Position numbers and translations under genes: made by a program. The notes below the pieces were generated by a model that made no database searches, had not been told where the DNA came from, and saw only the letters and a program-made list of their open reading frames with translations. This document shows positions 36,522 to 56,525 of a stretch of 64,000 nucleotides of DNA, in pieces. Positions within the stretch are counted from its first letter, which is position 1. Each line of letters opens with the position of its first letter. The DNA comes from a virus (Duplodnaviria > Caudoviricetes). The stretch is taken from the IMG/VR virus record IMGVR_UViG_3300044247_000057, positions 1-64,000 of that record. One strand, given 5' to 3'.

Positions 36522-38351
36522 ATGTCGACTGAGTACGTGAACCCACCGGCAGGCGGGTATCCGGAGATCATTGACGTCGCCGTGGACGGCGAAGCCAAGA
36601 AGATCCCGGTCGGTCCGCCCTTTGTCGAGCTCGGTGGCACCGGCCTGAAGCGGTCCACCGGAGTCATCGACGAGGAGTTCCTGCCCGCGCTACGCGGGAC
36701 CAAGGGCGTCAAGGTCTTCACCGAGATGTCGCAGAACGATGCGACCATCGGTGCTCTGCTCTTCACCATCGAGAAGCTGCTGCGTGAGGTCACCTGGACG
36801 GTGGTGGGGGACGACTCCTCCCCCGAGCAGGCGAAGGCGGTGCAGTTCGTCGAGGAGTGCATCGACGACATGTCCCACAGCTTCGACGACCTGGTGGCGG
36901 AGATCCTGAGCATGCTCCCCTATGGGTGGAGCTGGCACGAGATCGTCTACAAGAAGCGCATCGGTCCCTGGGAGAACGACGGGCGAAGGCGCAGCAAGTT
37001 CACGGACGGCAAGATCGGCTGGCGCAAGATGCCGATCAGGGCCCAGGAGACGCTGCATCGCTGGCTGTTCGACGACACGGGTGGCATCAAGGGCATGGTG
37101 CAGATCCCGGCCCCCACCTACACCCAGCGCACGCTGAGCATCGAGCGGTGCCTGCTGTTCCGCACGGGCGCGCACAAGGGCAACCCCGAGGGTCGCTCCA
37201 TCCTGCGCAACGCCTACCGGCCCTGGTTCTTCAAGAAGCGGCTGGAGGAGTTCGAGGCCATCGGTGTGGAGCGTGACCTGGCCGGTCTACCCTTCGCCAA
37301 GGTCCCCAGCCAGATCATGAAGCCGGACGCGACGCCGCAGCAGAAGCAGCTGTTCACGGCGTTCAAGCGCCTGGTGAGCAACGTCCGAAGGGACGAGCAC
37401 GACGGTGTGGTCATCCCCTCGGACGTGGACCCGGACACCAAGACGCCAGAGTACGACTTCCAGCTGTTGAGCTCGGGTGGTGGCAAGACCTTCGACACCA
37501 ACGCCCTGATCGAGCGGTACAGCACCGAGATATTGATGACCGTGCTGGCCGACTTCATCAAGGTTGGTCACCAGGGAACGGGCTCCTACGCCCTCCATGT
37601 GGACAAGACGGGCATCTTCCGGGCCGCGCTGAACAGCATCGCCCAGGGCATCGCGGACGTGTTCAACCGCCATGCCATCCCCCGGCTGTTCGCCATGAAC
37701 CAGTGGAAGCTGGACAAGCTCCCCCGGATCGAGCCCAGCAACGTCGACCCGCCCAACCTGGCTGAGCTGGGTGCCTTCATGCAGACCATGGCCGGACTGG
37801 GGATGACCTTCTTCCCGGACCCGGACCTGGAGAAGTTCCTGCGCGAGGCCTCGCACCTGCCCGATCTCCCCCAGGAGGTGGAGGAGATGCGGCGGGAGGA
37901 GGCCGACATGCAGAACGCCATGGCCTTCGAGGGCGCGAAGCAGAAGCAGCAGATGGTGGCCGAGGGGATGACCCCGGAGCAGGCTGAGATGCAGGCCCAG
38001 GCCCCCACACCCGAGATGCAGGAGCAGGAGCAGGCCGGGGCCATGCAGCAGCAGGAGATGGATGCCCAGGGCAAGCAGATGGACATGGACATCAAGGGCC
38101 GCGACGCCGAGCTGAAGATGCAGGGCCAGAAGCAGGGTCTGGAGATCGACGGCAAGTCCAAGCGGCAGGCCCTGGAGCACGACCGCAGGGCCAAGGATCT
38201 GGAACACCGGCACAACAAGCGGTCCAAGGACCTGGAGTACACCCACAAGAAGCGCATCAGTGAGCTGAGCATCCGGGAGAAGAAGGAAGCCATGAAGCAG
38301 CGGCCCAAGGCGAACGAGCCCAAGAAGACCTTCCCGAAGAAGAAGAAGTGA
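36522..38351 (+). CDS. portal protein with long C-terminal helical extension
   Basis: ELGGTGLKR...EEFLPALRG...EM..ND..IGA, GRSILRNAYRPW, IGVERDLAGLP (DUF935/Mu gp29-like portals). Confidence 0.9.
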   Translation: MSTEYVNPPAGGYPEIIDVAVDGEAKKIPVGPPFVELGGTGLKRSTGVIDEEFLPALRGTKGVKVFTEMSQNDATIGALLFTIEKLLREVTWTVVGDDSSPEQAKAVQFVEECIDDMSHSFDDLVAEILSMLPYGWSWHEIVYKKRIGPWENDGRRRSKFTDGKIGWRKMPIRAQETLHRWLFDDTGGIKGMVQIPAPTYTQRTLSIERCLLFRTGAHKGNPEGRSILRNAYRPWFFKKRLEEFEAIGVERDLAGLPFAKVPSQIMKPDATPQQKQLFTAFKRLVSNVRRDEHDGVVIPSDVDPDTKTPEYDFQLLSSGGGKTFDTNALIERYSTEILMTVLADFIKVGHQGTGSYALHVDKTGIFRAALNSIAQGIADVFNRHAIPRLFAMNQWKLDKLPRIEPSNVDPPNLAELGAFMQTMAGLGMTFFPDPDLEKFLREASHLPDLPQEVEEMRREEADMQNAMAFEGAKQKQQMVAEGMTPEQAEMQAQAPTPEMQEQEQAGAMQQQEMDAQGKQMDMDIKGRDAELKMQGQKQGLEIDGKSKRQALEHDRRAKDLEHRHNKRSKDLEYTHKKRISELSIREKKEAMKQRPKANEPKKTFPKKKK

Positions 38352-39394
38352 GCACCGCCGACATCCTGCGACAGCAGGGGGTGGACGTCCGGCTGGTGAT
38401 GAAGGCGGCCAGGGACGACAACCAGCACAAGCGTGCTGGCGGTGGTGCCATGGTCGGGGCAGGCGGCGTCGCTGCTGCCGGTGGCTTCGCTGGTGGCGGG
38501 GTTCCGGGACTGAAGTCGGACCGTCTGCTGATGGACGTCACGGGTGCGGCCAACCGGCGCGAGAAGGTGAAGATGGCTGCGCGGGCGTACAAGGGCGGGG
38601 AGTTCGGCTACCGGACCAACGCCCACCACACGCACCAGGCCTTCAACCTCAGCGATACCAAGGCTGCTCCCGATGCTTCTCGGGTTGCTCATCTCAAAGC
38701 CGCCCACAACGCCGGACAGAGTGCTGCCGAGACCAAGATCATCCGGCACCTGAAGGTGGCCCGGAAGGGGTCGCACGCTGCCCTGGTGGGTGGTGCCGGT
38801 CTGACCGCCCTGGGTGTGCACCGCATCCGGCAGGCGAAGAAAAACAAGGCACAGCCGGTCTCCAAGGCGGAGAAGAAGGGTGACACCGCCTTCGGTGCCG
38901 CCCTGGGTGCCGGTGCTGCGACGGCTGGGGTCAGTGTGGGTGGTGCCCGGGCGCTGGAGCACCACGGGCGCAAGTGGTCCCGCTCAGCTGCTGCTGACCT
39001 GGATGAGGCGCACAAGATCATCCCGAACTCGGGCGGGCACAAGGTCAACCCCTTCCCGGGCAAGACGAACCCCCGGGTGCCCGACATCGGCCCGGAGAAG
39101 GGCGAGTCGAAGGTCTGGCGGGACCCGAAGATCCTGGCGGGGAAGTCCAAGGCCCAGGCCGCGAAGGTGGGAGAGCTGCGCGGGAACGCCATGAAGAGCC
39201 GCTACTTCGCCGGGGTGTACGGGAAGATGGGTGGAGCTGTTCGCCGCATCCGTAACCCTGCCATCGGGGTGGCCACGGTGGGTGCGGGCGGTCTGGCGGT
39301 GACCCATCACAAGAAGAAGGACAAGGTCGCCAAGTCCCTGTTCGAGCTCCGTGTGGAGTCGATGCACCCAAAAGCACAGTCAGCAAGGGGGTAG
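38348..39394 (+). CDS. basic Gly/Ala-rich putative internal virion protein A
   Basis: Hydrophobic G/A helices flanked by K/R clusters; VMK-A, VSK-A, VAK-S motifs. Confidence 0.75.
   Translation: MSTADILRQQGVDVRLVMKAARDDNQHKRAGGGAMVGAGGVAAAGGFAGGGVPGLKSDRLLMDVTGAANRREKVKMAARAYKGGEFGYRTNAHHTHQAFNLSDTKAAPDASRVAHLKAAHNAGQSAAETKIIRHLKVARKGSHAALVGGAGLTALGVHRIRQAKKNKAQPVSKAEKKGDTAFGAALGAGAATAGVSVGGARALEHHGRKWSRSAAADLDEAHKIIPNSGGHKVNPFPGKTNPRVPDIGPEKGESKVWRDPKILAGKSKAQAAKVGELRGNAMKSRYFAGVYGKMGGAVRRIRNPAIGVATVGAGGLAVTHHKKKDKVAKSLFELRVESMHPKAQSARG
39367..39373 (+). other. candidate -1 ribosomal frameshift heptamer C-CCA-AAA
   Basis: XXXYYYZ in correct phase; GGAG 8 nt upstream; -1 frame open into ORF 39460..40782. 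Confidence 0.6.
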
Positions 39395-40782
39395 GCCTTG
39401 CGGGTCTGGTCGAGAACGCTGCCACCGCCACCGCTGGCAGCGTAGGCCTCAGTGAAGCCGTGCGGCGGAAGCGGCGGCGCAAGCGGGCCAAGGTCGCCAA
39501 GTCCTTCATCAACGGCAAGTTCGTCCGGGCCGTCGATCTGGGTGCCAAGCAGAAGCACAAGATCCGGACGGTGAACCAGTACGCCCAGTCCAAGGGCGCT
39601 CTGGGCAACCGCTCCGACCCCGTGCTGTCGGGCTACCGGAAGAAGATCGAGACCGAGGCAGGTCCCTTGCGGGAAGCCTTCAAGACCGGCGACCAGGCCA
39701 AGCTGGCTGAGTTCGGCGAAAAGGCTGGTTTCGACGCCTTCGCCCACCGGATGGGGGGCAAGGGCGGCGGCAAGTCCATGGTTCACATCACGCCCAAGAA
39801 CGAGTACAAGGAGAAGTTCGTCAGCCAGTCGATGGGTGAGAAGTCCCACGGCCACCTCGGCAGACACGAGGCCGCGCACGCCTCGACGAAACGATCCGAG
39901 TACCGGTTGCACGGTCAGATCCCGGCCAGCATGAAAAAGCACGGTCGGGAGGAGGGGCGGGCCGACTTCATCGCCAGTGGTCACTACAGGGGCGCTGGAC
40001 ACAAGCCCACGGAGTTGGGTGAGGCACCTTCCGGCTACTCCAATGCCGTCCAGCAGTGGGAGAAGCCTGGGTTCAAGAAGAAGACCATCCCTGAGGCGCG
40101 CAAAGCCCACGTGGAAGCGGGTGCTTCGTCCAAGGAGTTCGACCGGACCATCAAGGGTCAGAACAACTGGAACAAGGGCTACCGCCAGGTGCACGAGAAG
40201 ATGCAGGCGGCCAAGACCGCCCGCACCGTCAAGCCCCAGGTCGCTCCCAGGCCGGTGGCCGAGCCTGCCCCCACTCCCGCACGGCCCGCGTACATCCCCG
40301 GACCAGGACCTCAGACCGCTCCCAAGCCAGGTCGGTTCAAGCGGATCTTCAGCCGCAAGGACCGGGTGGGCAAGGCCTACACAGTGAGGAAGGCAGACAT
40401 GGAGTTCCCGATGAAGGGGGAGATCGCCAAGATGCTCCCCACCATGGCTGAGAGGAAGCTCATGGTGGCGGATAACAAGCTGCGGCGGGCTGCCGACAAG
40501 GTGACCCAGAAGGCCCACTTCAAGGCCCAGAAGACGGCGCAGAAGACAGCGCTCGGCACCACGAGGCAGATGACCAGGGACTTCAAGGCTGCCAATCCGG
40601 GGAGGAAGACGACGGCGCAGTTGCAGGAGCACCACGACGCCGTGAAGGCGGTGCGCGATCAGCACTGGGCCCAGAAGCAGTCCGGGATCATCGCCCACAA
40701 CAAGCGCCCGGGGAAGATGCGCAGCCAGTGGGCTGGAGACCCCAACCTGCCCGGCACGCGCACCACGATGTTCGGTGGCTGA
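39373..40782 (+). CDS. HExxH metallopeptidase-domain virion protein (probably the frameshifted C-terminal part of protein A)
   Basis: HEAAH (39865-39879) with downstream EEGRAD; no credible own RBS/start; VAK-S, VGK-A, VRK-A motifs. Confidence 0.65.
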   Translation, partial: STVSKGVGLAGLVENAATATAGSVGLSEAVRRKRRRKRAKVAKSFINGKFVRAVDLGAKQKHKIRTVNQYAQSKGALGNRSDPVLSGYRKKIETEAGPLREAFKTGDQAKLAEFGEKAGFDAFAHRMGGKGGGKSMVHITPKNEYKEKFVSQSMGEKSHGHLGRHEAAHASTKRSEYRLHGQIPASMKKHGREEGRADFIASGHYRGAGHKPTELGEAPSGYSNAVQQWEKPGFKKKTIPEARKAHVEAGASSKEFDRTIKGQNNWNKGYRQVHEKMQAAKTARTVKPQVAPRPVAEPAPTPARPAYIPGPGPQTAPKPGRFKRIFSRKDRVGKAYTVRKADMEFPMKGEIAKMLPTMAERKLMVADNKLRRAADKVTQKAHFKAQKTAQKTALGTTRQMTRDFKAANPGRKTTAQLQEHHDAVKAVRDQHWAQKQSGIIAHNKRPGKMRSQWAGDPNLPGTRTTMFGG

Positions 40783-41639
40783 TGCCCGACGCAGATCTGA
40801 CCTTCCGAGTGGGCCTGAAGGTCAACCAGATGCCTAAGACCAACCTGCTGCAGAACGCCGTCTACGAGTCCATCGACCGCAAGTGGTACCTGTGTCAAGC
40901 CCAGGACGCGGGAGCTCGGGACCGGGAGCACAGCATGATCCGGCGCTTCTCCCGCACGGGCACGTTCGAGGGCACCACCAAGTGCGAGCTGTTCGGCCAC
41001 GGCAACCAGATCGGGGTGCGCAAGTCAGCCGCAGGCAACGTCTGGATCTGGGTGCCGATGGACTCTTACAACGGCTCCGGTCACACCACCAGCACCAAGC
41101 CTGCTCGGGTCGTCTTCGAGAAGGGCTCTACCCGGGTGCGCAAGGAGTCGGCGGTGGTCGACATCTATGACGGTGGGCTGGCTAACCAGGGCTTCGGGCT
41201 GTCGGCGGAGAACCCCGGCATCCTCTACCTGCGGAAGGGCCACTCCGGCTCCGAGACCTACCGGATGGTGGACGAGGAGGCCTACCGCAAGGGCAACGGC
41301 AAGTCCAAGGTGTACGGCGAGGTCGAGGTCTCCAAACACAACCGGGGGAAGTACTTCCAGGGCTGTGGGGCAGGCGGGGACACTCTGGCCGTGCTGTCCG
41401 GCTCCACTGGTCACAACCAGTACATCGACGTCTACAGCTTCGAGAAGCGCAAGAAGCTGACCCGGCTGACCATCCCGATAAGCCAGATCTACCGCTGCCT
41501 GAAGAGCGGTGGAGCCACCTACAGCAGTGCCGAGGCCGAGGGCCTGCAGTTCATCGACGGTGCCCTGTACATGGGTGCCCGCTCGGGCCCACCGGGGAAG
41601 AAGCGCGACTTCTCCATCATGGAGGTGTCCGGATGGTGA
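40782..41639 (+). CDS. beta-propeller protein (P68 RBP/TagC-like)
   Basis: LQNA...WYLCQ...FGHGNQIGV...VWIW...AEAEGL pattern. Confidence 0.6.
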   Translation: MPDADLTFRVGLKVNQMPKTNLLQNAVYESIDRKWYLCQAQDAGARDREHSMIRRFSRTGTFEGTTKCELFGHGNQIGVRKSAAGNVWIWVPMDSYNGSGHTTSTKPARVVFEKGSTRVRKESAVVDIYDGGLANQGFGLSAENPGILYLRKGHSGSETYRMVDEEAYRKGNGKSKVYGEVEVSKHNRGKYFQGCGAGGDTLAVLSGSTGHNQYIDVYSFEKRKKLTRLTIPISQIYRCLKSGGATYSSAEAEGLQFIDGALYMGARSGPPGKKRDFSIMEVSGW

Positions 41640-42996: not shown

Positions 42997-43575
42997 ATGC
43001 CTTGGGAACAAACCGGCAGTGGCTACAAGACGAGTCGTGGTGGCTTCGTCAAGAACCCCGCTCAGTACGAGAAGCTGCGGGGCAAGGGCATGTCCAAGGA
43101 ACGAGCGGCACGGATCGTCAACAAGGAGCTGAGGATGAAGGATCCCATCGAGATCATGAAGGCTGATGCTCTCTGGCGTCGTGACGACGAGGACATCGAG
43201 AAGGGCATCTTCGGTGGTCTGGCCCAGGGGCTGAAGCGCACCCAGGCCATCGGTCCGATGCAGCGCGGCACTCAGGCTGGCTTCAACGCCGGTACTGCTA
43301 TCCGCAGCGCGGGCAGCAAGGTCGCGGGTGCGTTCAGGCGGACTGGTGGTCAGGTGAAGGCCGGTGCCCAGACCGCCCACGGTCCACTGCCTGCCACTGC
43401 CCCCACGGCCACCAAGGTCGGACAGCAGGCTGCACGCGCCCCGGGTCGTCTGGTGGCGGCAGTCAAGGAGCGTCCCAAGACGGCCATCGGCGTAGGCGCT
43501 GCCACAGCCGGGCTTGCTGGTGGCGGTGCCTACACGGCTGGGCGCACCCACAAGAAGCGGACAGGTCGTCCCTGA
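42997..43575 (+). CDS. basic putative internal virion protein
   Basis: IMK-A, IEK-G motifs; C-terminal G/A helix plus basic tail. Confidence 0.7.
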   Translation: MPWEQTGSGYKTSRGGFVKNPAQYEKLRGKGMSKERAARIVNKELRMKDPIEIMKADALWRRDDEDIEKGIFGGLAQGLKRTQAIGPMQRGTQAGFNAGTAIRSAGSKVAGAFRRTGGQVKAGAQTAHGPLPATAPTATKVGQQAARAPGRLVAAVKERPKTAIGVGAATAGLAGGGAYTAGRTHKKRTGRP

Positions 43576-43576
43576 G

Positions 43577-44452
43577 ATGTACGGGCTGGTCTCCAAGGCT
43601 GACCTGGCGCGCAGCCAGTGGGCCGACGTGAGCAAGAACCTGGTGGAGTTCCAGAATCCGGGCAGGTCCAAGAAGCAGCGGGCCACCGAGGCAGCTGGAG
43701 CGACGGTCGCCACAGGCGGGGCCACTGCCGCCGTGGGTGGTCTGCTGTCCCGCAGACGCGCTCTCGGGCTGGCAGGTAAGTCTGAGGAGGCAATCAAGCA
43801 GCCGAGGATGCAGATGGTCGCCCGCGCCGAGCACACTGCTCGTGCGGGGGCCGAGAGGCTGCATGCTGCCCGAGCAGGAAAGGCCTCCAAGATCGGGGCA
43901 GGGGTGACCGCTGTCGGTCTGGGTGGACTGGCCTACAGCCAGAGGGGCAAGCGGAAGAAGGTCGAGTTCGGCAAGGCCCTCACCAAGAAGGAGAGGGAGG
44001 ACCGGAAGGGTCCTCAGCTCCCCAAGAACCCGGTGGTGACCGGAGGCCTGGGACTGGGTGCGGCAGGAGCTGGTCTCTTCGGCGCTACCCGTCCGGTGTA
44101 CTGGAACCAGCGGAAGAAGTCCGTAGCAGCAGAGGGTGTCTCCTCGGCGGCCTGGAAGGAGGCCAAGGGCCATCAGGCAGCTGGTCATGAGGCTCAGAAG
44201 CTCTCGCAGAAGCGCAAGAGCACGACGTCTCCAGGGGATGCCCTGAGGCACTTTGCGGCCCATGACGAAGCTCTGGGCAGGGCCCAGAAGTACTCCACCA
44301 TGTCCACCGACGCCAAGGCCGGTGCGCTGAAGACCGCCAAGCTCGGACGCAAGGGACTGATCGGTGCGGTCGGAGGAGCGACCGCTGTGGGTGCTGGGCT
44401 GGGCTACGACAAGTACCAGAAGCGCAAGGCGCGCCAGGCTGAGCAGATGTGA
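43577..44452 (+). CDS. basic Gly/Ala-rich putative internal virion protein
   Basis: Starts MYGLVSK-AD; four G/A hydrophobic segments each followed by K/R clusters; FGK-A. Confidence 0.75.
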   Translation: MYGLVSKADLARSQWADVSKNLVEFQNPGRSKKQRATEAAGATVATGGATAAVGGLLSRRRALGLAGKSEEAIKQPRMQMVARAEHTARAGAERLHAARAGKASKIGAGVTAVGLGGLAYSQRGKRKKVEFGKALTKKEREDRKGPQLPKNPVVTGGLGLGAAGAGLFGATRPVYWNQRKKSVAAEGVSSAAWKEAKGHQAAGHEAQKLSQKRKSTTSPGDALRHFAAHDEALGRAQKYSTMSTDAKAGALKTAKLGRKGLIGAVGGATAVGAGLGYDKYQKRKARQAEQM

Positions 44453-44694
44453 CCAGGAAGCAGAAGGTTCGACAGTTCCCGACCAAGGACGAGGCCTACG
44501 CCCTGGGTCGGAATGCCCAACGGCTGATGCCCGGGAACAAGGGCAAGGTGATCAACGCCGGGTTGACGATGGCAGAGGAGACGAACAAGCGACTCATCCC
44601 CATCGTCGTCCAGAAGGACTCTCCTGCCGGACCCGATGTCGGTACGTTGAAGGCCTTGCGAGTAGTGAGGAGAAAGAAGCGTGCCCGCAGCTGA
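44449..44694 (+). CDS. small basic protein
   Basis: GTGA overlap; VVQK-D; ends RVVRRKKRARS. Confidence 0.6.
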   Translation: MTRKQKVRQFPTKDEAYALGRNAQRLMPGNKGKVINAGLTMAEETNKRLIPIVVQKDSPAGPDVGTLKALRVVRRKKRARS

Positions 44695-47416
44695 GGTCGT
44701 CATCGTCGGCACCTTCACCACGGAGAACGAGCCGTCCCAGGGATCTGTGCTCTTCACCGACGACAACTTCTCCGTCGACACTGGCGAGAGCGAGATCTAC
44801 ACCCCGGTCAGCATCACCGGCTACCTGGATCAGAACGGCTTCATGCGGGTCCGGCTGCCGCTCAACATCGGCTCCGACACCATGCCTCAGCCCCGGGCCT
44901 ACCACTGTGTGATCGGGGTGCAGCAGTACAGCGCTGAGTTCGACTTCGTCATCAACCCGGCCCAGACGATCATCGACCTGGCCACCTTGATCCCGGTCTC
45001 CCCCGTACCCACGCTGACCAGTACCTACGTGGAGTCGGTCGCGGGCATGTCCGGCAACATCAGTGCCAAGGCACTGTCGGACGCGGTCGGCGTGTGGTCC
45101 CCAGCAGCCGGAGACAGCGCGTACGAGACCTGGTTGAAGGCAGGCAACACAGGGACAGTCAGCGATTTCTTCGAGGCGTACAGAGGCGTCCAGGGCGTGC
45201 AGGGGGTGGCGGGTCCTACCGGCGACACCGGTCCACAGGGACCCACGGGCAAGTCCGGTCCCGCTGGCCCCCAGGGCGAGGACTTCGTCATCGAGGGTGT
45301 AGTCAACCGCGCCTCCGACCTGCCGGACGGCTATCAGCGCTACACGGTGTTCGTCACCACCGACACCCAGGAGTTCTGGCTCAACACCGGCAACGACCAG
45401 TGGATGACCCTGGGCTCCTACGCGGGCGAGCCCGGAGCTCCCGGTGACGTCAGTGGCGGCATCCTGACCGACACCAACTACTTCGTCTCCCCCGAGCCCA
45501 GCAGGCTGGAGGGCTGGACCGCATTGATGGGGACGATCTCCCTGGTGCCCTCCATCGCGGATGCGAGTCGCACCGCCCTCCAGAACCTCTGGAACTCCGG
45601 TACGGCCTCGACCAACAAGCTCACTCTCACTTCTCCCCAGATCGCCAACCCGGCGCTGGGGGCAGGCGACCACATGTGGGTCCAGGCCTCGCTGTACACC
45701 AATGCCACTGCGGCCAACAAGGACGTCACGGTGACGGTGGTGCGGCGCAGCACCCACGCGGTGCTGGCCAGTGCCACGGTGTCTGCCGGTCCGGCTGTGG
45801 GCAAGGTCAGCTTCGACTGCATGACCATCGACCCCGTCCCGGCCAACGACCTGTACCTGACCTTCGAGCGCGCTCTGGTGGCAGGACCCAACGAGCAGCT
45901 CCGGGTCTCCAACGTGATGGTCAGCAAGGCCACAGTGGAGACGCCCTACTTCGACGGCTCCTCCACCAACAACCAGTCGTTCAACCACGCCTGGCTCGGT
46001 CAGGACGGCTACTCGGTCTCCACCAAGACCACGCCCACCACCAAGGCCATCCTGGGCCTGGACAACGTGGACAACACCCACGACCTGGACAAGCCGATCT
46101 CCAACGCCACCCGGATCGAGTTGGACTATGTCCGGGAGAACGCCGGTCAGGTGAAGTCGGTCAACTTCATGACCGGCGACGTCATCGTCGACAAGAACAG
46201 CGTGGGTCTGGACCAGGTGGCCAACCTGGCACCCAACGACCTGCCGGTCTCTCAGCAGACCCAGATCGCCCTGGACCAGATGTCCTCCGAGGCTGCCGAC
46301 CTGATCCAGAACATGGGCCTGGTTGACCTGTCCGACGTGAGCGGCAGCGACACCCCCACCAATGGGGATGTGGTGACCTGGGCCAACAACCAGTTCGAGT
46401 TCCTGCCCGGTGGCAACACGTCGGTAGCCATCCTCAACGCCGCCAACCTGGATACCTACACCACTCCTGGCACCTTCACCCAGTCCAGCACCCAGCAGGC
46501 GGCTGCCGGGACGAACTACCCCATTGGGCTGGCCGGGATGCTGGAGGTCAGAGCCTCCCCCGACGCCTCGATGATCTGGCAGACCTACACGGTGTACGGG
46601 CGCGGGGGCGCAGTGAACACCGACCTGGACTCCAACGTGTCCTGGCAGCGGTCCAGGTACAGCAATGTCTGGACCTTGTGGAAGCCGATGTCCTGGGGCA
46701 AGCCGATGGTCTGGGACAACGCGGCCTCGGGCTGGAACCAGGTGCCCTCCTTCGCTGACTTCAACGGCCAGAACTGGGGCAACGAGGTCTACCAGGACAC
46801 GCTGGGCAGACTGCGCTCCCGTCCCACGGTCCTGCTCTACAACGGGATCACCAGTGCCACCCTGCCCTCGGGTTGGCCTACGGGCGTCACTGTCATGCGA
46901 GTCAGCTCGGCTAACGGCTTCCCCGGCTCGGGCAACGTGCTCACGGTTAAGGGGGAGGCGGGTGAGTGGACCTTCCAGATCTGGTCCACCGGCCCGTCCA
47001 GCCAGAAGGTGATGTTCCGGTTCGGCAGCACCTCCTGGGGTGCCTGGGAGATGATCGGCGGTCCGGCCTACTCCGAGACCACCCCGTTGGTGGCCTACAC
47101 GGGCTGGGCGATGGTCAGCTCCTACATGCAGGTGTGGGGGCACGTGGCGATGCTGTACGGCAACATCAAGCGCACGGGTGGGGTGCTGACCTCCACGGGC
47201 GGTGACATCACCAACACCAACATGTGCTACATCGTCTCCGGACTGCCCTATCCCACGACCACCACGGGGTTCCATGCTGTCGGTGGCGGCACCCTGTTCG
47301 GCGGCCAGATCGGCTCGGACCGGGTGCTGACGATCTCCATCATCTCCAGGGGCAGCTCTGTCGACACCAACGACGCACTGATCTTCTCCTCCACCTTCCT
47401 CACCAACCAGATCTAG
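44681..47416 (+). CDS. second tail fibre / receptor-binding protein (911 aa)
   Basis: N-terminal Ig-like domain, collagen stretch, CBM-like module with YFDG, LDNVDNT/LDQVAN fibre repeats, pyocin-knob-like LDTYTTPG...LEV...QTY. Confidence 0.85.
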   Translation: MPAAEVVIVGTFTTENEPSQGSVLFTDDNFSVDTGESEIYTPVSITGYLDQNGFMRVRLPLNIGSDTMPQPRAYHCVIGVQQYSAEFDFVINPAQTIIDLATLIPVSPVPTLTSTYVESVAGMSGNISAKALSDAVGVWSPAAGDSAYETWLKAGNTGTVSDFFEAYRGVQGVQGVAGPTGDTGPQGPTGKSGPAGPQGEDFVIEGVVNRASDLPDGYQRYTVFVTTDTQEFWLNTGNDQWMTLGSYAGEPGAPGDVSGGILTDTNYFVSPEPSRLEGWTALMGTISLVPSIADASRTALQNLWNSGTASTNKLTLTSPQIANPALGAGDHMWVQASLYTNATAANKDVTVTVVRRSTHAVLASATVSAGPAVGKVSFDCMTIDPVPANDLYLTFERALVAGPNEQLRVSNVMVSKATVETPYFDGSSTNNQSFNHAWLGQDGYSVSTKTTPTTKAILGLDNVDNTHDLDKPISNATRIELDYVRENAGQVKSVNFMTGDVIVDKNSVGLDQVANLAPNDLPVSQQTQIALDQMSSEAADLIQNMGLVDLSDVSGSDTPTNGDVVTWANNQFEFLPGGNTSVAILNAANLDTYTTPGTFTQSSTQQAAAGTNYPIGLAGMLEVRASPDASMIWQTYTVYGRGGAVNTDLDSNVSWQRSRYSNVWTLWKPMSWGKPMVWDNAASGWNQVPSFADFNGQNWGNEVYQDTLGRLRSRPTVLLYNGITSATLPSGWPTGVTVMRVSSANGFPGSGNVLTVKGEAGEWTFQIWSTGPSSQKVMFRFGSTSWGAWEMIGGPAYSETTPLVAYTGWAMVSSYMQVWGHVAMLYGNIKRTGGVLTSTGGDITNTNMCYIVSGLPYPTTTTGFHAVGGGTLFGGQIGSDRVLTISIISRGSSVDTNDALIFSSTFLTNQI

Positions 47417-47423
47417 GAGCGAC

Positions 47424-47612
47424 ATGAGCGACCAGGAGCTGGAACCAGAGCTCGAAGACCTGAACGATGACGACACCTGGATGCCGGAGGAGGACGAGGA
47501 CCCGGTTCCCGACGACGACGTGACCTTCCCCAGCAACGGGGACGACTCGCTGTCCGATGACGACGTGGAGGACCCCGACGTCCTGGACGACGACTCGAAC
47601 GCCGTGGGCTGA
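47424..47612 (+). CDS. 62-aa hyper-acidic peptide coupled to the M23 peptidase gene
   Basis: AGGAG RBS; 20 Asp + 8 Glu, no Lys/Arg/His; TGATG overlap. Confidence 0.7.
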   Translation: MSDQELEPELEDLNDDDTWMPEEDEDPVPDDDVTFPSNGDDSLSDDDVEDPDVLDDDSNAVG

Positions 47613-48235
47613 TGCAGATCGGGCAGAACGTCCAGGTCACCGCCAACACCGGGCTGCGGGCCCGGCTGACCCCGCACGGGAAGCCCGCCAAGGACAGCAA
47701 GGGCAAGGAGATCGTCCGGCCCAAGGGCTACCGGTTCACCGTCACCCGGACCGAGTCCGGCTACGCGAGAGCCAAGTCCTACTGGTACGCCGAGCAGTAC
47801 CTGCAGGTGGTGGTGCAGACCGTCGCCGTCAAGGTCTCCTCCCCCTGCCCCGGGTACAAGGTCTCCACCCCGTACAAGAAGAAGCCGAACAACAACACCT
47901 ACTGGCAGTCCCGGGGCTACCACACGGGCGATGACTATGCGGCCCCCTCAGGCGCGAAGGTCGTCGCGGTGCGCAGTGGCACGGTCAAGTACCGCTGGGA
48001 CAAGGTGCTGGGACACTGTGCCCTGCTGCAGGGCAAGGACGGGGCTGGGAAGCAGTACACCTGGTGGTACTGCCACCTGCGAGCTCAGCCCACCACCGGC
48101 AGCGTGAAGCCCGGTCAGACCATCGGGCACGTGGGCTCCACCGGCACCGGGGCCAACGGGCCCCACCTGCACTTCGAGAAACGCTCTGGCTACACGACGT
48201 CGTGGGCCGGGAAGGACCTGAGTCCGACATGGTGA
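47612..48235 (+). CDS. endolysin, SH3-like domain + M23 peptidase
   Basis: HTGDDY, WYCHL, GSTG...GPHLHFE. Confidence 0.9.
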   Translation: MQIGQNVQVTANTGLRARLTPHGKPAKDSKGKEIVRPKGYRFTVTRTESGYARAKSYWYAEQYLQVVVQTVAVKVSSPCPGYKVSTPYKKKPNNNTYWQSRGYHTGDDYAAPSGAKVVAVRSGTVKYRWDKVLGHCALLQGKDGAGKQYTWWYCHLRAQPTTGSVKPGQTIGHVGSTGTGANGPHLHFEKRSGYTTSWAGKDLSPTW

Positions 48236-49680
48236 GCAGCCTGGTACCCCTGGGCGTGCAGCCCCAGTGCCAGCAGATCTGTGCCGAGGTGATCCAGAAG
48301 AACCCCGGCAAGGTCCGCAACGTGCACGGCTACGCGAGCTTCCCCGACCACAACAACCGGCGCTGCGTGGACTACATGATCCACGACAAGGCGGGCGGGG
48401 ATCAGATCGTCGAGTACTACCTGGACGACCGCGTCCGGCTGAAGGTCAACCTCATCATCTGGTACGAGCGGATCATGCGCTCCTACGACAAGCCGGGCAT
48501 CCCGGCCTGGACCTGGGCCCCGTACACGGGCGCGAAGAACCACAAGGACCACCCGCACGTGGAGCACAAGGAGGGCACGTACGTCCCTCCCAAGGAGGTC
48601 GTCGTGGACAACCCCAAGAACGAGGAGGGGATCAAGAAGGGCGACAAGGTCAAGGTGAACGCGACCGGAGGCCTGCGGGGACGCAGCAGCCCAGGTGGCC
48701 CGGTGGCTCTGACCCGTCCGGACGGCTACCAGTTCACCGTCACCGACGTGAAGGACGGCTGGGTCTCGGGCGGTCAGAACTGGTACAGCAGCGACTACCT
48801 CGACAAGGTGGCACCTCCGGTTGTAGTGCCGCCGAAGCCGCCACCCCCCAAACCGAGCTGGGTCAAGACCCCCATCGTCAAGCTCAGCATGGCCAAGATC
48901 CCGAACCCCGTGAACTACCTGCAGGGCGTGGTCCGGGTGGCCGGGAACGTGGTCAACGGCAAGCAGCAGCAGCACATCTACGTGCTGGCCCAGGACCCCG
49001 ACGCCAAGGGCAACACCCGCTTCTTGGCCTACAGCGCGGGAGGCACCTACCTCAACTCGATGACGGTGAAGAACGGGGGCCATGGACAGACCTTCCATGC
49101 CTACCGCTCGGCAGCGAACAACCTGTACATCTGGACCCTGATCGGGGACTACGCCTACCGGATCAAGTGGCAACCGGGCAGAACAGTTACGTCGTCTAGT
49201 AGTGGTGTGGAGAAGATGGCGTACGGCACCGCGAGGCCGGTGGGTACCTACGAGTCCTACGTGGGCTTCCGGGCGGCCACCAGCACCCACGAGACGTTCT
49301 CCCTGCACGACCGGTTCGGCTGGACTGACCCGAAGAACAACTCGGCCAAGGCCCTGAAGCGGGTGACGGTGAAGAAGCGCACCTCGCACACCCAGCAGTC
49401 CTGGGCGTTCAGTTCTACCCGTATCTACCGCCTGCTAGGGAAAACCAATACTGATGCGGGCAGGGGTACGAACAAGCACATCCTGGACGTCCTGGACTGG
49501 ACGGGGAAGCTGCTGACCACGGTGGACGTCACCACCATGTCGCTGCCTGGGGCTACCTCCGACGAGCCTGAAGGCGTTACCTTCACAGGTACGCCAGGAT
49601 CTGTTCTGGTCGGCAAACGAAGTGGTCCCAACAACCACACCCGCACGTACCCCCTCTGGCAGATGACAGGACTCCCATGA
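48229..49680 (+). CDS. second lysin: M15-like/hedgehog-fold peptidase + SH3b + Pro linker + TagC-like beta-propeller
   Basis: DH...CVDYM...GDQI...LIIW...NHKDHPHV; SH3b VKVNA...WYSSDYL; GGHGQTF...LYIW...DEPEG; ATG 48229 after GGAAGGA. Confidence 0.7.
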   Translation: MVSSLVPLGVQPQCQQICAEVIQKNPGKVRNVHGYASFPDHNNRRCVDYMIHDKAGGDQIVEYYLDDRVRLKVNLIIWYERIMRSYDKPGIPAWTWAPYTGAKNHKDHPHVEHKEGTYVPPKEVVVDNPKNEEGIKKGDKVKVNATGGLRGRSSPGGPVALTRPDGYQFTVTDVKDGWVSGGQNWYSSDYLDKVAPPVVVPPKPPPPKPSWVKTPIVKLSMAKIPNPVNYLQGVVRVAGNVVNGKQQQHIYVLAQDPDAKGNTRFLAYSAGGTYLNSMTVKNGGHGQTFHAYRSAANNLYIWTLIGDYAYRIKWQPGRTVTSSSSGVEKMAYGTARPVGTYESYVGFRAATSTHETFSLHDRFGWTDPKNNSAKALKRVTVKKRTSHTQQSWAFSSTRIYRLLGKTNTDAGRGTNKHILDVLDWTGKLLTTVDVTTMSLPGATSDEPEGVTFTGTPGSVLVGKRSGPNNHTRTYPLWQMTGLP

Positions 49681-49874
49681 GCGACATCATCAAGTGGTTC
49701 TCCCACGGCCACCTGCCTGCTCCCCAGCAGGAGGTGGCTCAGGCGATCCAGGACCTGGCCCAGAAGATGGAGGCCACTCTCCCCGAGACTGCTGAGAAGA
49801 CGGCAGGACTCAGGAAGCTGCTGGAGGCCAAGGACTGTTTCGTGCGGGCCAGCCTGGAACTGACCCAGGAGTAG
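49677..49874 (+). CDS. small helical-hairpin protein, possibly Acb2/Tad1-like
   Basis: IIKWFSHGHLP...LPETAEKTAGLRKLLEAKDCFVRA. Confidence 0.6.
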   Translation: MSDIIKWFSHGHLPAPQQEVAQAIQDLAQKMEATLPETAEKTAGLRKLLEAKDCFVRASLELTQE

Positions 49875-49896
49875 CCAAGGACGGGAGAATGACCCC

Positions 49897-52707
49897 ATGG
49901 ACTTCAACCGCAATGTGGCTGACTGGGTGTACGGGCTGGTCTCCAAGATGGACGACGGTGAAGCCCGCATGTTCACGGTCTTCCTGGCCGAGGACCTGTA
50001 CCAGACCGATCTGAAGAACAACGCCAAGCTGGTCGAGCGCACCCGTGCCTCGGTCGAGAAGGCGATGACCGACGAGCTGGCCAACGACTTCCTGTTCCGA
50101 CTGGAGCGTGGGGTCAACCCCGAGCAGCTGGTGGCTGAGGCCGCAGCGGTGGCTATCGCCAAGGCCGACGATTACGAGGCCTGGAAGTTCCAGACCCGTG
50201 AACACGGGCGCTGGGCCAAGATGGGTCCCGGCTACTGGAAGGCCCAGAAGAAGGCCATCAAGGCTGAGGGTGACTACGCCAAGCAAGCGGCGATGATGTC
50301 TGCGATGCGCTTTCATCACGGTGACCAGATCAAAGCCATGGGCGAGGATCTGGGCCCCCAGGTGCATGGCGTCCAGCAGCAGTGGAACAAACGCTCCACG
50401 GGTCAGTCCGGAGCCACGGACACCTTCAACCGGATCACCGCAGCTGGTCGGACGACAGCCCTCGTAGGTGTGGCCACCGACCAGCCCAACGTCTACGCGG
50501 CTGGTCAGGCTGCCTCCCTGGTGGGTCAGTTCGGGCCCGAGGCAGAGAAGGTCGTCGGTCCTGCCGTACGCCGCACTGCGTACCGGTACCGGGGCACTGA
50601 GACGAAGCCGCAGACCAAGGAGATCAAGGCGGCGGCCAACAACCGTGCTCGGGAGCTGTTCCCCACTGAACGGGACAAGAAGGGCGTTCCGACCGGTCAA
50701 GGGATGGCTCCGCTGGCCGATCTGAAGTCCGGTGCTGCGCGTCCGGAGAACGTGGACCGACTGGACGAGAGCAAGCGGGACTTCGTCCTGCAGATGGGTG
50801 CCGCCGACCATCTGGCCACCAAGATCCCCTCGCTCGCCCTGGCCAACCTGCAGGTCAAGTCCGGCAAGATCCCGCCCTCTGAGGGCGTCATCATCAACGG
50901 CGATGGCCAGGTGACCGCGCAGGCGGTGGGTTTCGCCGAGGACCATTACCTCCCCTTCAACCTGCGCAACCTGGGTGAGCTCAACGGTGGGCGCTACGTG
51001 CGTACGCGCACGACCGGTGGTCCGACGTCGGAGGACATCCACGCGGCCACGCTGGCTGGTGCCCGGTCCTTCACAGTGGTCTCCCGCTCCGGTGAGTTCA
51101 CCGTCGACTTCGCTGACGACTTCCGGGGTGCCCGTCGCCACTCGGACAAGGCGATGGGGATGCAGAAGCAGTACGAGCAGCTGCTGGACGCGGTGAAGTC
51201 CAAGCAGGTGGAGAAGCTGCCCACGTCCGCCCGGGAGCGTGCTGAGGTCCGGGAGGAGCTGGAGGACGAGATCGAGCGGCTGAAGAGCGACCCAGCCTCT
51301 GGCTTCGACTACCAGACCTACACCGACAAGATGTTCAACGAGGAGCTGAACCGGCGACTGACCCAGCGTCGGCAGAACCCGAAGCTGACTTCTGAGGAGA
51401 TCACGCGGATCGACGAGTTCGCCTGGAACGGCCTGAACAGGCAAGCTCCCACCGACCGGGAGAAGGTCGAGCACGACAAGGCGGTCAAGCAGCTCTCCCG
51501 TCGCGTGCTGCGGGAGAAGGGCAACCAGAACTTCAAGCTGGACGGCGACGGCTACAAGGCGGCTCTGGAGGCGCTGAAGGAGCAGTACCCATACTTCATC
51601 GCTGACATCCGGGTGCGCTCCGCTGGCGACGCGCCGGAGGACTTTGGCGACGGCACCGACCAGGGCTACGTCAAGCCCCGGCACATCCGGGCCGAGGCAG
51701 CTCAGGCTGGGTACTTCGGTGTCGGTATCGAGGGTGCTACGAGCACCAAGCGGTCGGCGGAGAACCTGCACTACCAGAACTGGGGTGTGCGGCAGAACAT
51801 GAAGACCGCAGCGCCGCAGGGTACCGAGCAGACCGAGGAGGAGAGGGACACCAACCCCTCCACCATCCCGGCCACTCCCCAGCCAGGCCAGACCCCTGCG
51901 GTCACCGCCGTGGGTGGAGGAGGAGCCACCTCAACGGCTACCTCTCCGCAGGAGCACGCTCAGGCGGGAGAGAGGGCATCCCGGGTCCAGACTGCCGAGA
52001 TCGAGCGGGACAACTCTGTCTACCAGGCGGCGCACTACTGGGCTGACCGGCTACCGCCGAAGGACAGTCCCTCCTACGCCTACATCCCGGCTGAGGCCAA
52101 GATCCTGGATGAGCTGCGAGATGCTTCCGATCCCAAGTCGTTCACCGACAGGAACCGGGAAGCGATCAAGCGGGCTGTCGCTCACATCTCTGCCGCCCCC
52201 GAGAGCCGTACGGCGCTGGCCGGGGCACCGAAGATCGTGGACAACGTAGAGGAGGTCAAGCGTGCGGTGGCCGCCAACCGCCCGGTCTCCCTCACTCCCC
52301 AGCCACTGACCCAGGACGACATGCGGATTCTGCACGAGCGAGGTCTGATCAAGCACACCGCCATCCTGGGTGGAGGGACGCTGCAGGATGAGGGTCCGGA
52401 CACCAAGGACCTGTCCGACGACAGGCTGCGACAGAAGATCATGGCCTGGCAGGGGCAGCATGACCGGGAGACCAGCCCGGTGGAGCGAGCCAAGATCAGG
52501 GAGAACCAGCTCGACTACAACCGGCTGCTGGCCTTCCGCAAGCACAAGCTGGAGCGGGGTCGGGCGAACAACACCCCGTTCTCTCCCGCTGGCGGTCCGC
52601 CGCCGACCACGACTCCTCCGCCCACGGGATCGTTGCCGCCCGGTGCCGGGTCCAACACCTACAACCCGAACAGCAACGTCCGCGACTTCCGGCGTAGGAG
52701 CGCCTAG
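49897..52707 (+). CDS. large putative internal virion protein (936 aa) with degenerate JAB/MPN-like segment
   Basis: VYGLVSK, VEK-A, IAK-A motifs; EGVII..DG...GGPTSEDI...FTVVSRSG. Confidence 0.75.
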   Translation: MDFNRNVADWVYGLVSKMDDGEARMFTVFLAEDLYQTDLKNNAKLVERTRASVEKAMTDELANDFLFRLERGVNPEQLVAEAAAVAIAKADDYEAWKFQTREHGRWAKMGPGYWKAQKKAIKAEGDYAKQAAMMSAMRFHHGDQIKAMGEDLGPQVHGVQQQWNKRSTGQSGATDTFNRITAAGRTTALVGVATDQPNVYAAGQAASLVGQFGPEAEKVVGPAVRRTAYRYRGTETKPQTKEIKAAANNRARELFPTERDKKGVPTGQGMAPLADLKSGAARPENVDRLDESKRDFVLQMGAADHLATKIPSLALANLQVKSGKIPPSEGVIINGDGQVTAQAVGFAEDHYLPFNLRNLGELNGGRYVRTRTTGGPTSEDIHAATLAGARSFTVVSRSGEFTVDFADDFRGARRHSDKAMGMQKQYEQLLDAVKSKQVEKLPTSARERAEVREELEDEIERLKSDPASGFDYQTYTDKMFNEELNRRLTQRRQNPKLTSEEITRIDEFAWNGLNRQAPTDREKVEHDKAVKQLSRRVLREKGNQNFKLDGDGYKAALEALKEQYPYFIADIRVRSAGDAPEDFGDGTDQGYVKPRHIRAEAAQAGYFGVGIEGATSTKRSAENLHYQNWGVRQNMKTAAPQGTEQTEEERDTNPSTIPATPQPGQTPAVTAVGGGGATSTATSPQEHAQAGERASRVQTAEIERDNSVYQAAHYWADRLPPKDSPSYAYIPAEAKILDELRDASDPKSFTDRNREAIKRAVAHISAAPESRTALAGAPKIVDNVEEVKRAVAANRPVSLTPQPLTQDDMRILHERGLIKHTAILGGGTLQDEGPDTKDLSDDRLRQKIMAWQGQHDRETSPVERAKIRENQLDYNRLLAFRKHKLERGRANNTPFSPAGGPPPTTTPPPTGSLPPGAGSNTYNPNSNVRDFRRRSA

Positions 52708-52710
52708 CCG

Positions 52711-54789
52711 ATGGCCACTCCGCATCCGGAGAGCAGGTTCAAGGGGTTGCTCCTCTCTCCGGAAGAGGCCGCTGCGGTCGCCGGGATACGTGCCCGCATG
52801 CCAGTCGGAGTGCGGTCGGTCGGTCTGGCCCTGTCGGCGGTCTTCTCGCTCTACCGCTGGATCATGCAGCGTCGGCTGAAGGACGTTCAAGGAACGACTC
52901 CGGCGCTGATGGAGCAGGCCCTGCTGCTCGGGCTCCGGGAGTCCTTCATCGCCTTCCAGCCCACCCTGACGTCGATGACCACGCCGATCATGTACGCGGG
53001 CTATCTGGTCGGTGTGCAGGAGTCCGGGGTGAGGCTGCCTCAGCATGTGCTGGCGCAGATGGCCAACGGCTACGCCCCGAGCCTGGGGAACTACATCCAC
53101 ACCGTCAGCAGCGACGCCCTGCTGGCAGGCTTCCGGGCCCTGGTGAACCGCAAGGTCGACCACAGACGTGCCCTGAAGCTGACCACCGACGCCTACGGGG
53201 TCGACACCCGGACCATGAACACGCTGGTCAACGTGTGGACCGCCGAGGAGGCCAAGGGCTTCACCAACGTGCGGCAGATCGTCTCGGTCAAGGAGAAGCG
53301 GGCCGCCACGATCATCGCTCAGAAGGTCAAGGAGCGGGCCCACATCCTGGGTGCGCACGAGGCCTGGAACGCCAAGGAGCAGGCCAAGGAGGCGTCCTGG
53401 CTGTGGGCGATGGAGAACGGGATCATCACCGGGGCGGCTCGCAAGATGTGGGTGACCGCCGATGACGAGCGGGTCTGTGCCTCCTGTGGCCCCCTGGACA
53501 AGGTCCAGATCAAGGTGACCGACAGGTTCGAGACCACCGTGGGCAAGACGCTGACCCCGCCGCTGCACGTCGGCTGCCGGTGCGAGGTCACGCTGAGCGC
53601 CAGCATGCGTCGGATCCTGCTGGGACAGCTCCGCAGGAAGCCGGTGAGGAAGGCCTACGAGGGGCACCCCTGGGCCCGGAACCAGAAGCGCAACGAGGAA
53701 GGTGAGTGGGTCAAGGGCCCCAGCAGCGCCCATGGTCAGCCCCAGCCCGCGCTGGCACCACAGCCGGTGTACGACCCGGAACCACCAGAGCCCCCGCCGT
53801 CCGCTCCGGTGGAGGAGGAGTACATCGCCTTCGGGCCTCAGTACATCGCCTTCGCTCCACAGCCTGCTGAGCCGATTCAGTTCGGGCCACCACCACAGCA
53901 GGCGTCCCCTGCTCCCGCTACTCCACACATCGAGTTTCAGCCTCGACCCGAGGCGATCCAGTTCGCCCCGCCACCTGCGCAGTCCATCGAGTTCAAACCA
54001 CACACGACGCCGTTCTCGCACGCCACCTACACCCCGTCCCAGGCGACGCCGCAGCCGGTGGCTCCGCGCCCGAAGGAGCGGCAGCGGTTCGAGGAAGAGC
54101 AGTGGAAGCCGCCCAAGCCGAGCATCATCACCCTGGACCGGGGCGAAGAGGTCTACGGCGTGGTGCCGGACGACTTGGACCACGTCGAGGACTACGAGCT
54201 CGACCAGAATCGGATGGTCAACGACTTCGCCGACGCGCACGAAATGGTCGAGAACCAGTTGGCTGAGAACTACACCGAACGCATCTACGACGCTCTGGAG
54301 GAGGAGGGGAAGGACCTGGTCCCCATCTACTCCGAAGGTGGCGAGCAGTACTACGCCGACTACGAGGGCCTCCGGTCACTGTTCGAGTGGACCAGGGCCA
54401 AGCAGATCTACGAGGACCGGAAATCGTCGGGGATGCCGGAGTACATGGATCCACCAGTGTCCTTCGACCCGATGCAGGAGATCCAGGTTCACTCCAACTA
54501 CGACAACAGGGCGCACCAGATCGAAGCCGAGGTGTTGTCCCGCAAGGGTCGGCTCCGGGGTCAGGCCATTGATGACGTGATCGAGGAGATCACACCGTCG
54601 TTGGTCAAGGTCGACCGGATCGACATGGAGTTCAGTACCGAGGACCTGGGCTTGAACCGCAGAGACCACCCTGACTGGATTGTCACTGGTCCCCACCACA
54701 ACATCGAGGTTCTCGGCTCGATCACCGACCCCGAGACCGGTCAACGGATCCTGGCTCACGCCTACCATCTCGACCCCTTCGACGAGTAG
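52711..54789 (+). CDS. MuF-like (SPP1 gp7-like) minor head protein with C-terminal extension
   Basis: KMWVTADDERVCASC...PPLHVGCRC; then VRK-A, Pro-rich linker, acidic domain. Confidence 0.85.
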   Translation: MATPHPESRFKGLLLSPEEAAAVAGIRARMPVGVRSVGLALSAVFSLYRWIMQRRLKDVQGTTPALMEQALLLGLRESFIAFQPTLTSMTTPIMYAGYLVGVQESGVRLPQHVLAQMANGYAPSLGNYIHTVSSDALLAGFRALVNRKVDHRRALKLTTDAYGVDTRTMNTLVNVWTAEEAKGFTNVRQIVSVKEKRAATIIAQKVKERAHILGAHEAWNAKEQAKEASWLWAMENGIITGAARKMWVTADDERVCASCGPLDKVQIKVTDRFETTVGKTLTPPLHVGCRCEVTLSASMRRILLGQLRRKPVRKAYEGHPWARNQKRNEEGEWVKGPSSAHGQPQPALAPQPVYDPEPPEPPPSAPVEEEYIAFGPQYIAFAPQPAEPIQFGPPPQQASPAPATPHIEFQPRPEAIQFAPPPAQSIEFKPHTTPFSHATYTPSQATPQPVAPRPKERQRFEEEQWKPPKPSIITLDRGEEVYGVVPDDLDHVEDYELDQNRMVNDFADAHEMVENQLAENYTERIYDALEEEGKDLVPIYSEGGEQYYADYEGLRSLFEWTRAKQIYEDRKSSGMPEYMDPPVSFDPMQEIQVHSNYDNRAHQIEAEVLSRKGRLRGQAIDDVIEEITPSLVKVDRIDMEFSTEDLGLNRRDHPDWIVTGPHHNIEVLGSITDPETGQRILAHAYHLDPFDE

Positions 54790-54811
54790 ACGCGCAAAGG
54801 AGAATGAACCC

Positions 54812-55732
54812 ATGGACGTGGTCAAGGCACTGCAGGAGCACAGCGAGGCTGGTGCCACCATCGTCGACCTGCTCTACGGGGACGCGGGCGCAGAGGTCTC
54901 CAAGGCGCTGATCGAGTTCGGCAAGGAAGAGAAGAAGAAGGACACCCAGAAGCGGATCGCCCAGGTCTCCAACCTGGTCGGTATCGGAGCCGGTGCGGCA
55001 GCCGTCCCCGGTGCCTTCAAGCAGCTCGGTGAGGCGCACCGGAAGTACTACAAGCGCCCCGAGAAGCCGAAGAACACCACCCAGACCCGCAAGCTGATCG
55101 CCACCGCCAAGCACGGGACGGGGATCAAGCGCGTGGGAGCCAAGGGTGTGCTGAAGGCGCGCAAGCTCTACCGCAACCCCAAGGTCGTCCTGGGACTGGC
55201 TGGTGCTGGTGCTGGGCTACAGGTGGGCAACCTGGCGGGCGACACCATCACCAACCAGGTGCTGAACCGGAAAGAGAAGAAGGCCGGTGCGACGCCACCG
55301 CCCAAGGAGTTCGGCAAGACGGAGTTCGACATCTACACCGAGATCTCCAAGGTCGACTCCGACAAGCGTCAGGTCTTCGGCTGGGCCTCCGTGACCAAGT
55401 CCGGTGGCATCGACGTGGTCGATCTCCAGGGTGACGTGATCCCACTGGAGGAGATCGAGAAGGCCGCTTATGAGTTCGTCAAGAAGTCCCGGGTCGGCGG
55501 CAAGATGCACGGCAAGGGCGAGGCCGGACCGATCCAGGTCTCCGACATGATCGAGTCCTTCGTGGTCACCCCGGAGAAGAAGGCGGCCATGGGCCTCCCG
55601 GACGAGACGCCGGAAGGCTGGTGGGTCGGCTTCAAGGTGAACGACGACAACACCTGGGCCGAGGCCAAGGACGGCAAGCTGGCCGGTTTCAGCGTCCACG
55701 GGAGCGGGCGGAGGGTCCCGACTGATGCCTAG
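54812..55732 (+). CDS. XkdF-like prohead serine protease with G/A-rich N-terminal extension
   Basis: ISKVDSDKRQVFGWA...DLQGD...IEKAAYEF...MH...ES...GWWVGFKV...GFSVHG; ATG 54812. Confidence 0.85.
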   Translation: MDVVKALQEHSEAGATIVDLLYGDAGAEVSKALIEFGKEEKKKDTQKRIAQVSNLVGIGAGAAAVPGAFKQLGEAHRKYYKRPEKPKNTTQTRKLIATAKHGTGIKRVGAKGVLKARKLYRNPKVVLGLAGAGAGLQVGNLAGDTITNQVLNRKEKKAGATPPPKEFGKTEFDIYTEISKVDSDKRQVFGWASVTKSGGIDVVDLQGDVIPLEEIEKAAYEFVKKSRVGGKMHGKGEAGPIQVSDMIESFVVTPEKKAAMGLPDETPEGWWVGFKVNDDNTWAEAKDGKLAGFSVHGSGRRVPTDA

Positions 55733-56486: not shown

Positions 56487-56525
56487 GGCACCATCGTTGC
56501 CACCCTCGACATAATAGGGACTGAA

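Follow-up and report, generated by a model that had tools for sequence, protein, structure and literature searches.

A candidate -1 frameshift site joining a portal-adjacent gene to a putative HExxH zinc peptidase gene in a soil provirus

The major head and tail genes of Lactobacillus phage A2 reportedly undergo -1 frameshifts, which are said to have been proven experimentally by Garcia et al. in 2004 and Rodriguez et al. in 2005. The shift probably occurs on the heptamer C_CCA_AAA: the A2 genome (NC_004112) has an in-phase C_CCA_AAA-GCG at the end of its major head gene, open reading frame (ORF) 5 (5568-5574), and again in its major tail gene, ORF10 (7927-7933), in each case one codon ahead of the stop. 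Both ORFs are listed as -1 frameshift cases in the review of Atkins (2016; PMC5009743). Here we describe the same heptamer in the first 64 kilobases (kb) of the 77.9-kb IMG/VR record IMGVR_UViG_3300044247_000057, a stretch referred to below as the window. The record is classed as a provirus, and its source is a soil provirus of ~78 kb. The heptamer stands near the end of the gene that follows the portal gene (ORF1) and is succeeded, in the -1 frame, by ORF2, which encodes a putative HExxH zinc peptidase. Judging from the sequence, we lean towards the view that -1 slippage at C_CCA_AAA makes a fusion of both proteins alongside the free ORF1 protein, because the out-of-frame pair meets at a slippery sequence while related phages encode one protein.

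ORF1 (38348..39394, + strand) encodes the zero-frame product of 348 amino acids (aa), here called the A domain; its start codon overlaps the portal stop (GTGA), its G+C content at third codon positions (GC3) is 0.81, and its 14 homologues range from 305 to 569 aa. The proposed shift site, C_CCA_AAA at 39367..39373 (+), is in phase with ORF1 (...ATG CAC CCA AAA GCA...), and the zero-frame UAG stop (39392..39394, +) follows six codons past it. ORF2 (39460..40782, +) comprises 440 aa counted from its first GTG, has a GC3 of 0.87, and is read in the -1 frame with respect to ORF1; a basic stretch, VAKS, the HExxH domain (B) and a helical tail succeed one another along it, and its stop overlaps the ATG (40782) of the following gene as TGATG. 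Open over 39256-40782, the -1 frame reads PKSTVSKGVGLAGLVEN...AKVAKSF and offers 471 open codons counted from the heptamer, so that a -1 slip there would give a product of 811 aa. An earlier note on this DNA had proposed a 348-aa short form and a fusion of ~811 aa made at a fixed ratio, and every sequence feature it described is present: the phase of the heptamer, a GGAG 8 nucleotides (nt) upstream of it (39355..39358, +), a perfect 9-base-pair (bp) stem 42 nt downstream (ACGCTGCCA at 39416-39424 and TGGCAGCGT at 39435-39443), and the continuation of the -1 frame into ORF2, as confirmed by translation. The length of the fusion, the frame break and the -1 linker stand; the distant hairpin as a stimulator, the conservation of the heptamer and the fixed ratio of both products find no support.

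The heptamer is rare in its surroundings. The + strand of the window, whose G+C content is ~64%, contains a single CCCAAAA, and both codons are infrequent there (AAA represents 3.4% of the Lys codons and CCA 9.3% of the Pro codons). Among the 17,902 codons of 60 putative genes, 24 in-phase XXXYYYZ heptamers were found, with Y being A or T in five, and the chance of finding such an A/T-type heptamer in phase within the 46-codon permissive zone is ~1%. This low figure stands against an explanation by two separate genes, in which the heptamer would be a coincidence or a mutational hot spot; the latter option draws on the fact that A-runs are hot spots for insertions and deletions (indels) and that the window holds only 14 runs of four or more A. 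Two of the five A/T-type sites are found no more than 9 codons from a stop and with at least 130 open -1 codons, namely the site at 39367 and a C_CCT_TTT at 62936-62942. The latter, placed 7 codons before the stop (genes 62532-62957 and 62984-63328) with 130 open -1 codons, between the major tail protein gene (61969-62445) and the tape measure gene (63315 onward), is a canonical tail-assembly-chaperone -1 shift site. At both sites a hairpin begins 3 nt downstream and encloses the stop. Transcriptional slippage, also considered, requires a longer run than four A and was rejected because the run is too short. In alignment with relatives, a frame change at the heptamer scored 40/44 and the -1 frame throughout 36/42; homology does not separate a change at the heptamer from one a few codons upstream. 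The break may alternatively have originated from a 5-nt GTSGA duplication at 39353-39362.

The frame break itself is genuine and not an assembly error. This was examined by comparison with variants, using assembled contigs. Three soil metagenomes of other studies contain contigs (X3, 1549 nt, 39284-40832; X4, 482 nt, 39057-39538; X5, 151 nt) that differ by ~1% single-nucleotide polymorphisms (SNPs) and span 39367-73 without a gap; runs X8-X10, which cover only small parts of the window, were left out of the comparison. Further contigs from ENA and JGI carry the same 348-aa ORF1 and 440-aa ORF2 variants that are 99-100% identical, and the break allele was found in samples of four studies dating from 2018 to 2025. 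The loss of one A from a run of five during assembly or sequencing, with a true genome of one ORF, is thus highly improbable, even if five A in place of four would restore exactly the continuous ORF seen in a related locus (L006, described below). The contig-level data are compatible with a minority allele carrying five A.

ORF2 is under purifying selection. Its variant codons comprise 10 synonymous and 3 non-synonymous changes in X3 and 12 and 2 in X4, that is, 22 synonymous out of 27, and all these variants carry the break; even with the break in place, ORF2 is thus a functioning gene. Besides, it is free of stops and indels. These observations, together with the occurrence of the allele in four studies over several years, argue against an inactivating frameshift mutation after which ORF2 would be dispensable, decaying, or rescued only by a trace of slippage not under selection. 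Frameshifting that compensates for indels is a recognised class (Atkins 2016; PMC5009743), and such a mutation would agree with the lineage-specific arrangement, with the low GC3 of the linker, and with a frame break inside the A domain of another family member (P0056); nevertheless, we regard it as improbable. The junction region (39236-39471, 236 nt) has zero SNPs in the three variant contigs, where ~1.8 would be expected per contig, a difference that is not significant.

Related loci were compared at the DNA level in a set of 28 from viral and metagenome contigs; the DNA of the relatives P0026/P0052 and P0056 falls outside this set. L006/P0009 contains A, linker and B in one continuous frame, in the same order as in the window, with A being 49% identical. 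The nearest relative of A (P0026/P0052, 71% identity) has A joined directly to B in frame, with the linker preceding A in P0026. These proteins share the A domain and the HExxH domain with the window, and L006 also the linker and its place in the order, but they are single continuous ORFs whose junction is without the heptamer. The earlier note had named homologues that form one continuous ORF as a finding that would speak against frameshifting. Such nearest homologues do exist, and they cut both ways: they show the fused protein to be functional, yet the lineage may simply carry an indel. In L005 and L009, A is fused to different modules. In L007, L008, L014 and L015, A ends in ...MSAFGVEH followed by the stop, and a conserved TTCGGAGTGGAGCACTGATG provides the following gene, which is in the -1 frame, with both a Shine-Dalgarno (SD) sequence and an overlapping ATG. 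This sequence is nearly identical in these four diverged loci while doubling as SD and as stop/start overlap, and SAFGV(E/D)H marks module borders throughout the family (junctions of L007, L008, L014 and L015; proteins P0023, P0024, P0027 and P0028). Many B-domain proteins stand alone, with ~255 aa and a beginning of the form M-x-SAFGVEHG-x-ISKSF. Since fused and split forms alternate among the relatives, fusion and splitting at module borders are common in the family. Searches of 50,697 phage records with ORF1 and ORF2 (blastn and tblastn) gave no match, viral contigs scanned with single proteins yielded nothing, a scan of genome contigs found no relatives, and a word-index search with ORF2 returned only ORF2 itself.

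The stretch between the two genes, annotated as intergenic, looks coding, and in the -1 frame only. Read in that frame, it forms a stop-free linker module of 29 residues (X; 39373..39459, +), beginning STVSK and continuing as a G/A-rich helix, which is similar to the linker of P0009 (p = 0.0065) and to that of P0026 (p = 0.001), while the other two frames of the 66-nt gap gave p > 0.5; all p-values were computed against composition-preserving shuffles. Local GC3 is indecisive on the coding frame of the gap. The -1 frame contains no ATG, GTG or TTG from 39256 to 39459, the first such codon being GTG 39460. The statement in the earlier note that ORF2 lacks a good ribosome-binding site is borne out, as the SD duplex of GTG 39460 amounts to -2.8 kcal/mol against a background median of -3.65 and ranks among the three weakest of 60 genes. 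Nor does ORF2 have a coupled start with an SD at the ORF1 stop; its GTG lies 66 nt past that stop, while neighbouring gene junctions use GTGA or TGATG overlaps.

These data also bear on the possibility of two separate genes, according to which an ancestral fusion was split by the loss of one base (or a gain of 5 nt) and ORF2 starts independently at GTG 39460, or, less likely, at CTG 39406 or by re-initiation after the UAG, the linker being a recent non-coding relic. Such a relic would need to have preserved an open frame and a significant similarity to the linkers of relatives, the proposed start has the weak SD and the 66-nt distance from the ORF1 stop described above, and an ORF2 started at this GTG would be without the N-terminal ...[VI]-S-K motif of other module proteins. 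On the other hand, the stand-alone B homologues start ~11 residues before KSF, and GTG 39460 is placed 13 residues before it, so that an independent start at this position would resemble theirs. The alternation of fused and split forms, the low GC3 of the linker and the lack of a significant stimulator also fit separate genes, and if cleavage took place after each V-x-K, both routes would lead to the same mature B domain. We regard separate genes as the main rival to slippage and as less likely than it.

Several of these results weigh against slippage as well. Besides the start positions of the stand-alone B homologues and the compatibility of the contigs with a minority allele, in several relatives the genes are split, the downstream one having its own ATG where stop and start overlap as TGATG, and neither the out-of-frame junction nor the heptamer of the window is present in any of the 28 related loci (0/28). 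Conservation of heptamer and overlap in related phages, which the earlier note had put forward as a check, therefore extends only to the ~99% identical variants, the relatives being either fused or equipped with their own start. Read in the -1 frame, the linker has a GC3 of 19/28 (0.68), compared to 0.87 in ORF2 and 0.88-0.94 in the linker of L006. P0056, from an 83-kb ENA contig in which the called protein continues, through an error or a mutation, in the normally non-coding -1 frame into the next gene, shows that frame breaks occur in contigs of this family. The candidate stimulators belong to the same side of the balance. Of the elements looked for (a structure 5-9 nt downstream or an upstream SD), a hairpin and the GGAG were observed, neither of them above background. 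The GGAG may act as an SD-like stimulator; however, with a background of 0.008 per nt it has a ~8% chance of occurring in a 10-nt span, and it also falls within conserved G/R-V-E codons, which at the junctions of relatives (TTCGGAGTGGAGCACTGATG) supply the SD of the next gene. An imperfect hairpin that is absent from the earlier note (39377..39408, +) follows the heptamer after a 3-nt spacer and carries the UAG stop in its loop; its inner 6-bp stem (39383-88/39396-401) lies 9 nt past the heptamer, and its energy of -13.7 kcal/mol, within the top 16% of background, is not significant. The perfect 9-bp stem with its 10-nt loop (39416..39443, +), located 17 nt before GTG 39460, was not borne out as a stimulator, the regional RNA fold being no better than shuffled sequences (z = +0.65 and +0.46), and no Rfam match was found in the region.

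Two further features surround the heptamer. An in-frame ATG, Met339 of ORF1 (39362..39364, +), has an SD duplex of -5.9 kcal/mol at a spacing of only 3 nt and is probably the relic start codon of the linker module, as suggested by the in-frame ...QMSILRSQGIDPISK that L006 has at the same place. The linker is flanked by a 16-nt direct repeat, CAAGGTCGCCAAGTCC, with one copy at 39322..39337 (+), encoding KVAKS, and the second at 39489..39504 (+), at the end of linker X and 167 nt from the first; no other copies occur in the window. Recombination between both copies would delete 167 nt, leaving A and B fused in frame in a 755-aa protein that resembles P0026, and this deletion joint was not seen in the variant metagenome contigs compared.

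The ORF2 domain is a putative HExxH zinc peptidase. The two His, the Glu and a downstream R-E-E-x-R-A-D block are invariant in 19-21 B-domain sequences, and HExxH with a downstream acidic ligand is conserved across the family. The domain had no Pfam or PHROG hit, and Foldseek returned nothing. A full-length ORF2 fold search was swamped by the C-terminal helical hairpin, and a model of the domain alone gave, in VIA-align, weak similarity (Z 3.5-4.7) to the gluzincin-like DUF885, M32, M3, M1 and BlaR1-type peptidases. The designation as a metallopeptidase in the earlier note is thus favoured by the invariant HExxH...REExRAD, while the fold similarity to gluzincins stays weak (Z <= 4.7).

In the slippage we favour, ribosomes translating ORF1 would arrive at CCA-AAA (39368-39373), where some would move one base back, onto CCC-AAA, and go on to translate the 29-codon linker and all of ORF2, yielding the 811-aa A-linker-HExxH fusion. 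Unshifted ribosomes would terminate six codons on and release the 348-aa protein. As a variant, ribosomes initiating at the relic ATG 39362 could slip two codons later and produce linker and B without A. The fused form represents the ancestral or alternative state of the family and is obtainable in the lineage of the window only through the slip. We infer the slip, its efficiency and the use of both products from the arrangement of the locus. A more speculative reading, less likely than not, is a recoding site at its birth, in which a frame break landed on, or created, C_CCA_AAA in one lineage of modular portal-adjacent "cargo" polyproteins, so that free A and A-linker-peptidase would both be made, with the slip rate setting the amount of the HExxH domain, which would presumably be packaged.

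The gene order around these genes is unusual. The Mu-type portal gene (36522-38351; PF06074, phrog_113) has its nearest relatives in Arthrobacter phage portals (44-47% identity), and the host is probably actinobacterial because these are the closest portals. The genes following the portal in these Arthrobacter phages are MuF-like and show no relationship to ORF1 or ORF2. No tRNA genes were found. Within 36522-58824 of the window, ~14 kb separate the portal from the MuF-like gene (52711-54789), the protease-like (prohead-protease-like) domain (54680-55732) and the major head gene (57808-58824), and this stretch is occupied by cargo, fibre-like (44681-47416) and lysin-like (48064-49680) genes. 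The gene next to ORF2 encodes a receptor-binding-like propeller protein (PF21311) and was called at 40728-41639; rather than at the upstream GTG 40728, it probably starts at ATG 40782, which overlaps the stop of ORF2. An in-phase C_CCG_GGG at 40707-40713, 25 codons before the ORF2 stop, has a -1 frame that enters this propeller gene; it is probably a coincidence, as the propeller gene has its own ATG 40782 in the TGATG overlap. Several genes between portal and capsid (42997-57359) have short ...[VI]-[SM]-K motifs near their N-termini, for example MYGLVSK-A, WVYGLVSK-M, EIMK-A and MDVVK-A, which resemble propeptide cleavage sites. Together with the prohead-protease-like domain, these motifs suggest that the modules may be cut apart after assembly; in that case the fused and separate routes would differ mainly in stoichiometry and delivery.

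If slippage takes place, a portal-adjacent protein would be tied to a putative packaged zinc peptidase in a phage family that is uncharacterised and found only in metagenomes, and -1 frameshifting would be extended beyond the tail-chaperone and capsid-decoration classes. Slippage would also mean that fused, split and frameshifted gene forms interconvert easily, and that annotation pipelines would overlook the 811-aa product and label its linker as intergenic. The 29-codon linker offers a clean mass-spectrometry target, as the tryptic peptide GVGLAGLVENAATATAGSVGLSEAVR can be obtained only from -1 translation of the 66-nt gap.

The mechanism itself would be an ordinary -1 frameshift, and its heptamer is one for which shifting has been reported in phage A2; the novelty would lie in the portal-adjacent cargo genes, the full-length enzyme domain as an extension, and the apparent recent origin. 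E. coli dnaX (A_AAA_AAG) resembles the window in its upstream SD-like element (GGAG here), its downstream hairpin and a slippery site with a Lys codon, but the dnaX shift ends early, giving the gamma subunit and no fusion, and the stimulators of the window are weak and statistically unremarkable. The tail-chaperone G/GT genes likewise have an X_XXY_YYZ site, followed within a few codons by a stop, and a long -1 extension, whereas they occupy another genomic position, encode other proteins, and are conserved across phages, the site of the window being present in one lineage only. Phage A2 comes closest, with an identical C_CCA_AAA followed by GC, in phase and with the stop of a virion gene only a few codons away; here as there, a short protein and one extended at its C-terminus would be made from a single mRNA. 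The A2 extension is a short domain added to capsid and tail subunits, while that of the window would be an entire polypeptide of 469 residues containing an HExxH domain; and the A2 case concerns major head and tail genes and is proven, whereas that of the window concerns portal-adjacent "cargo" genes and is predicted from sequence.

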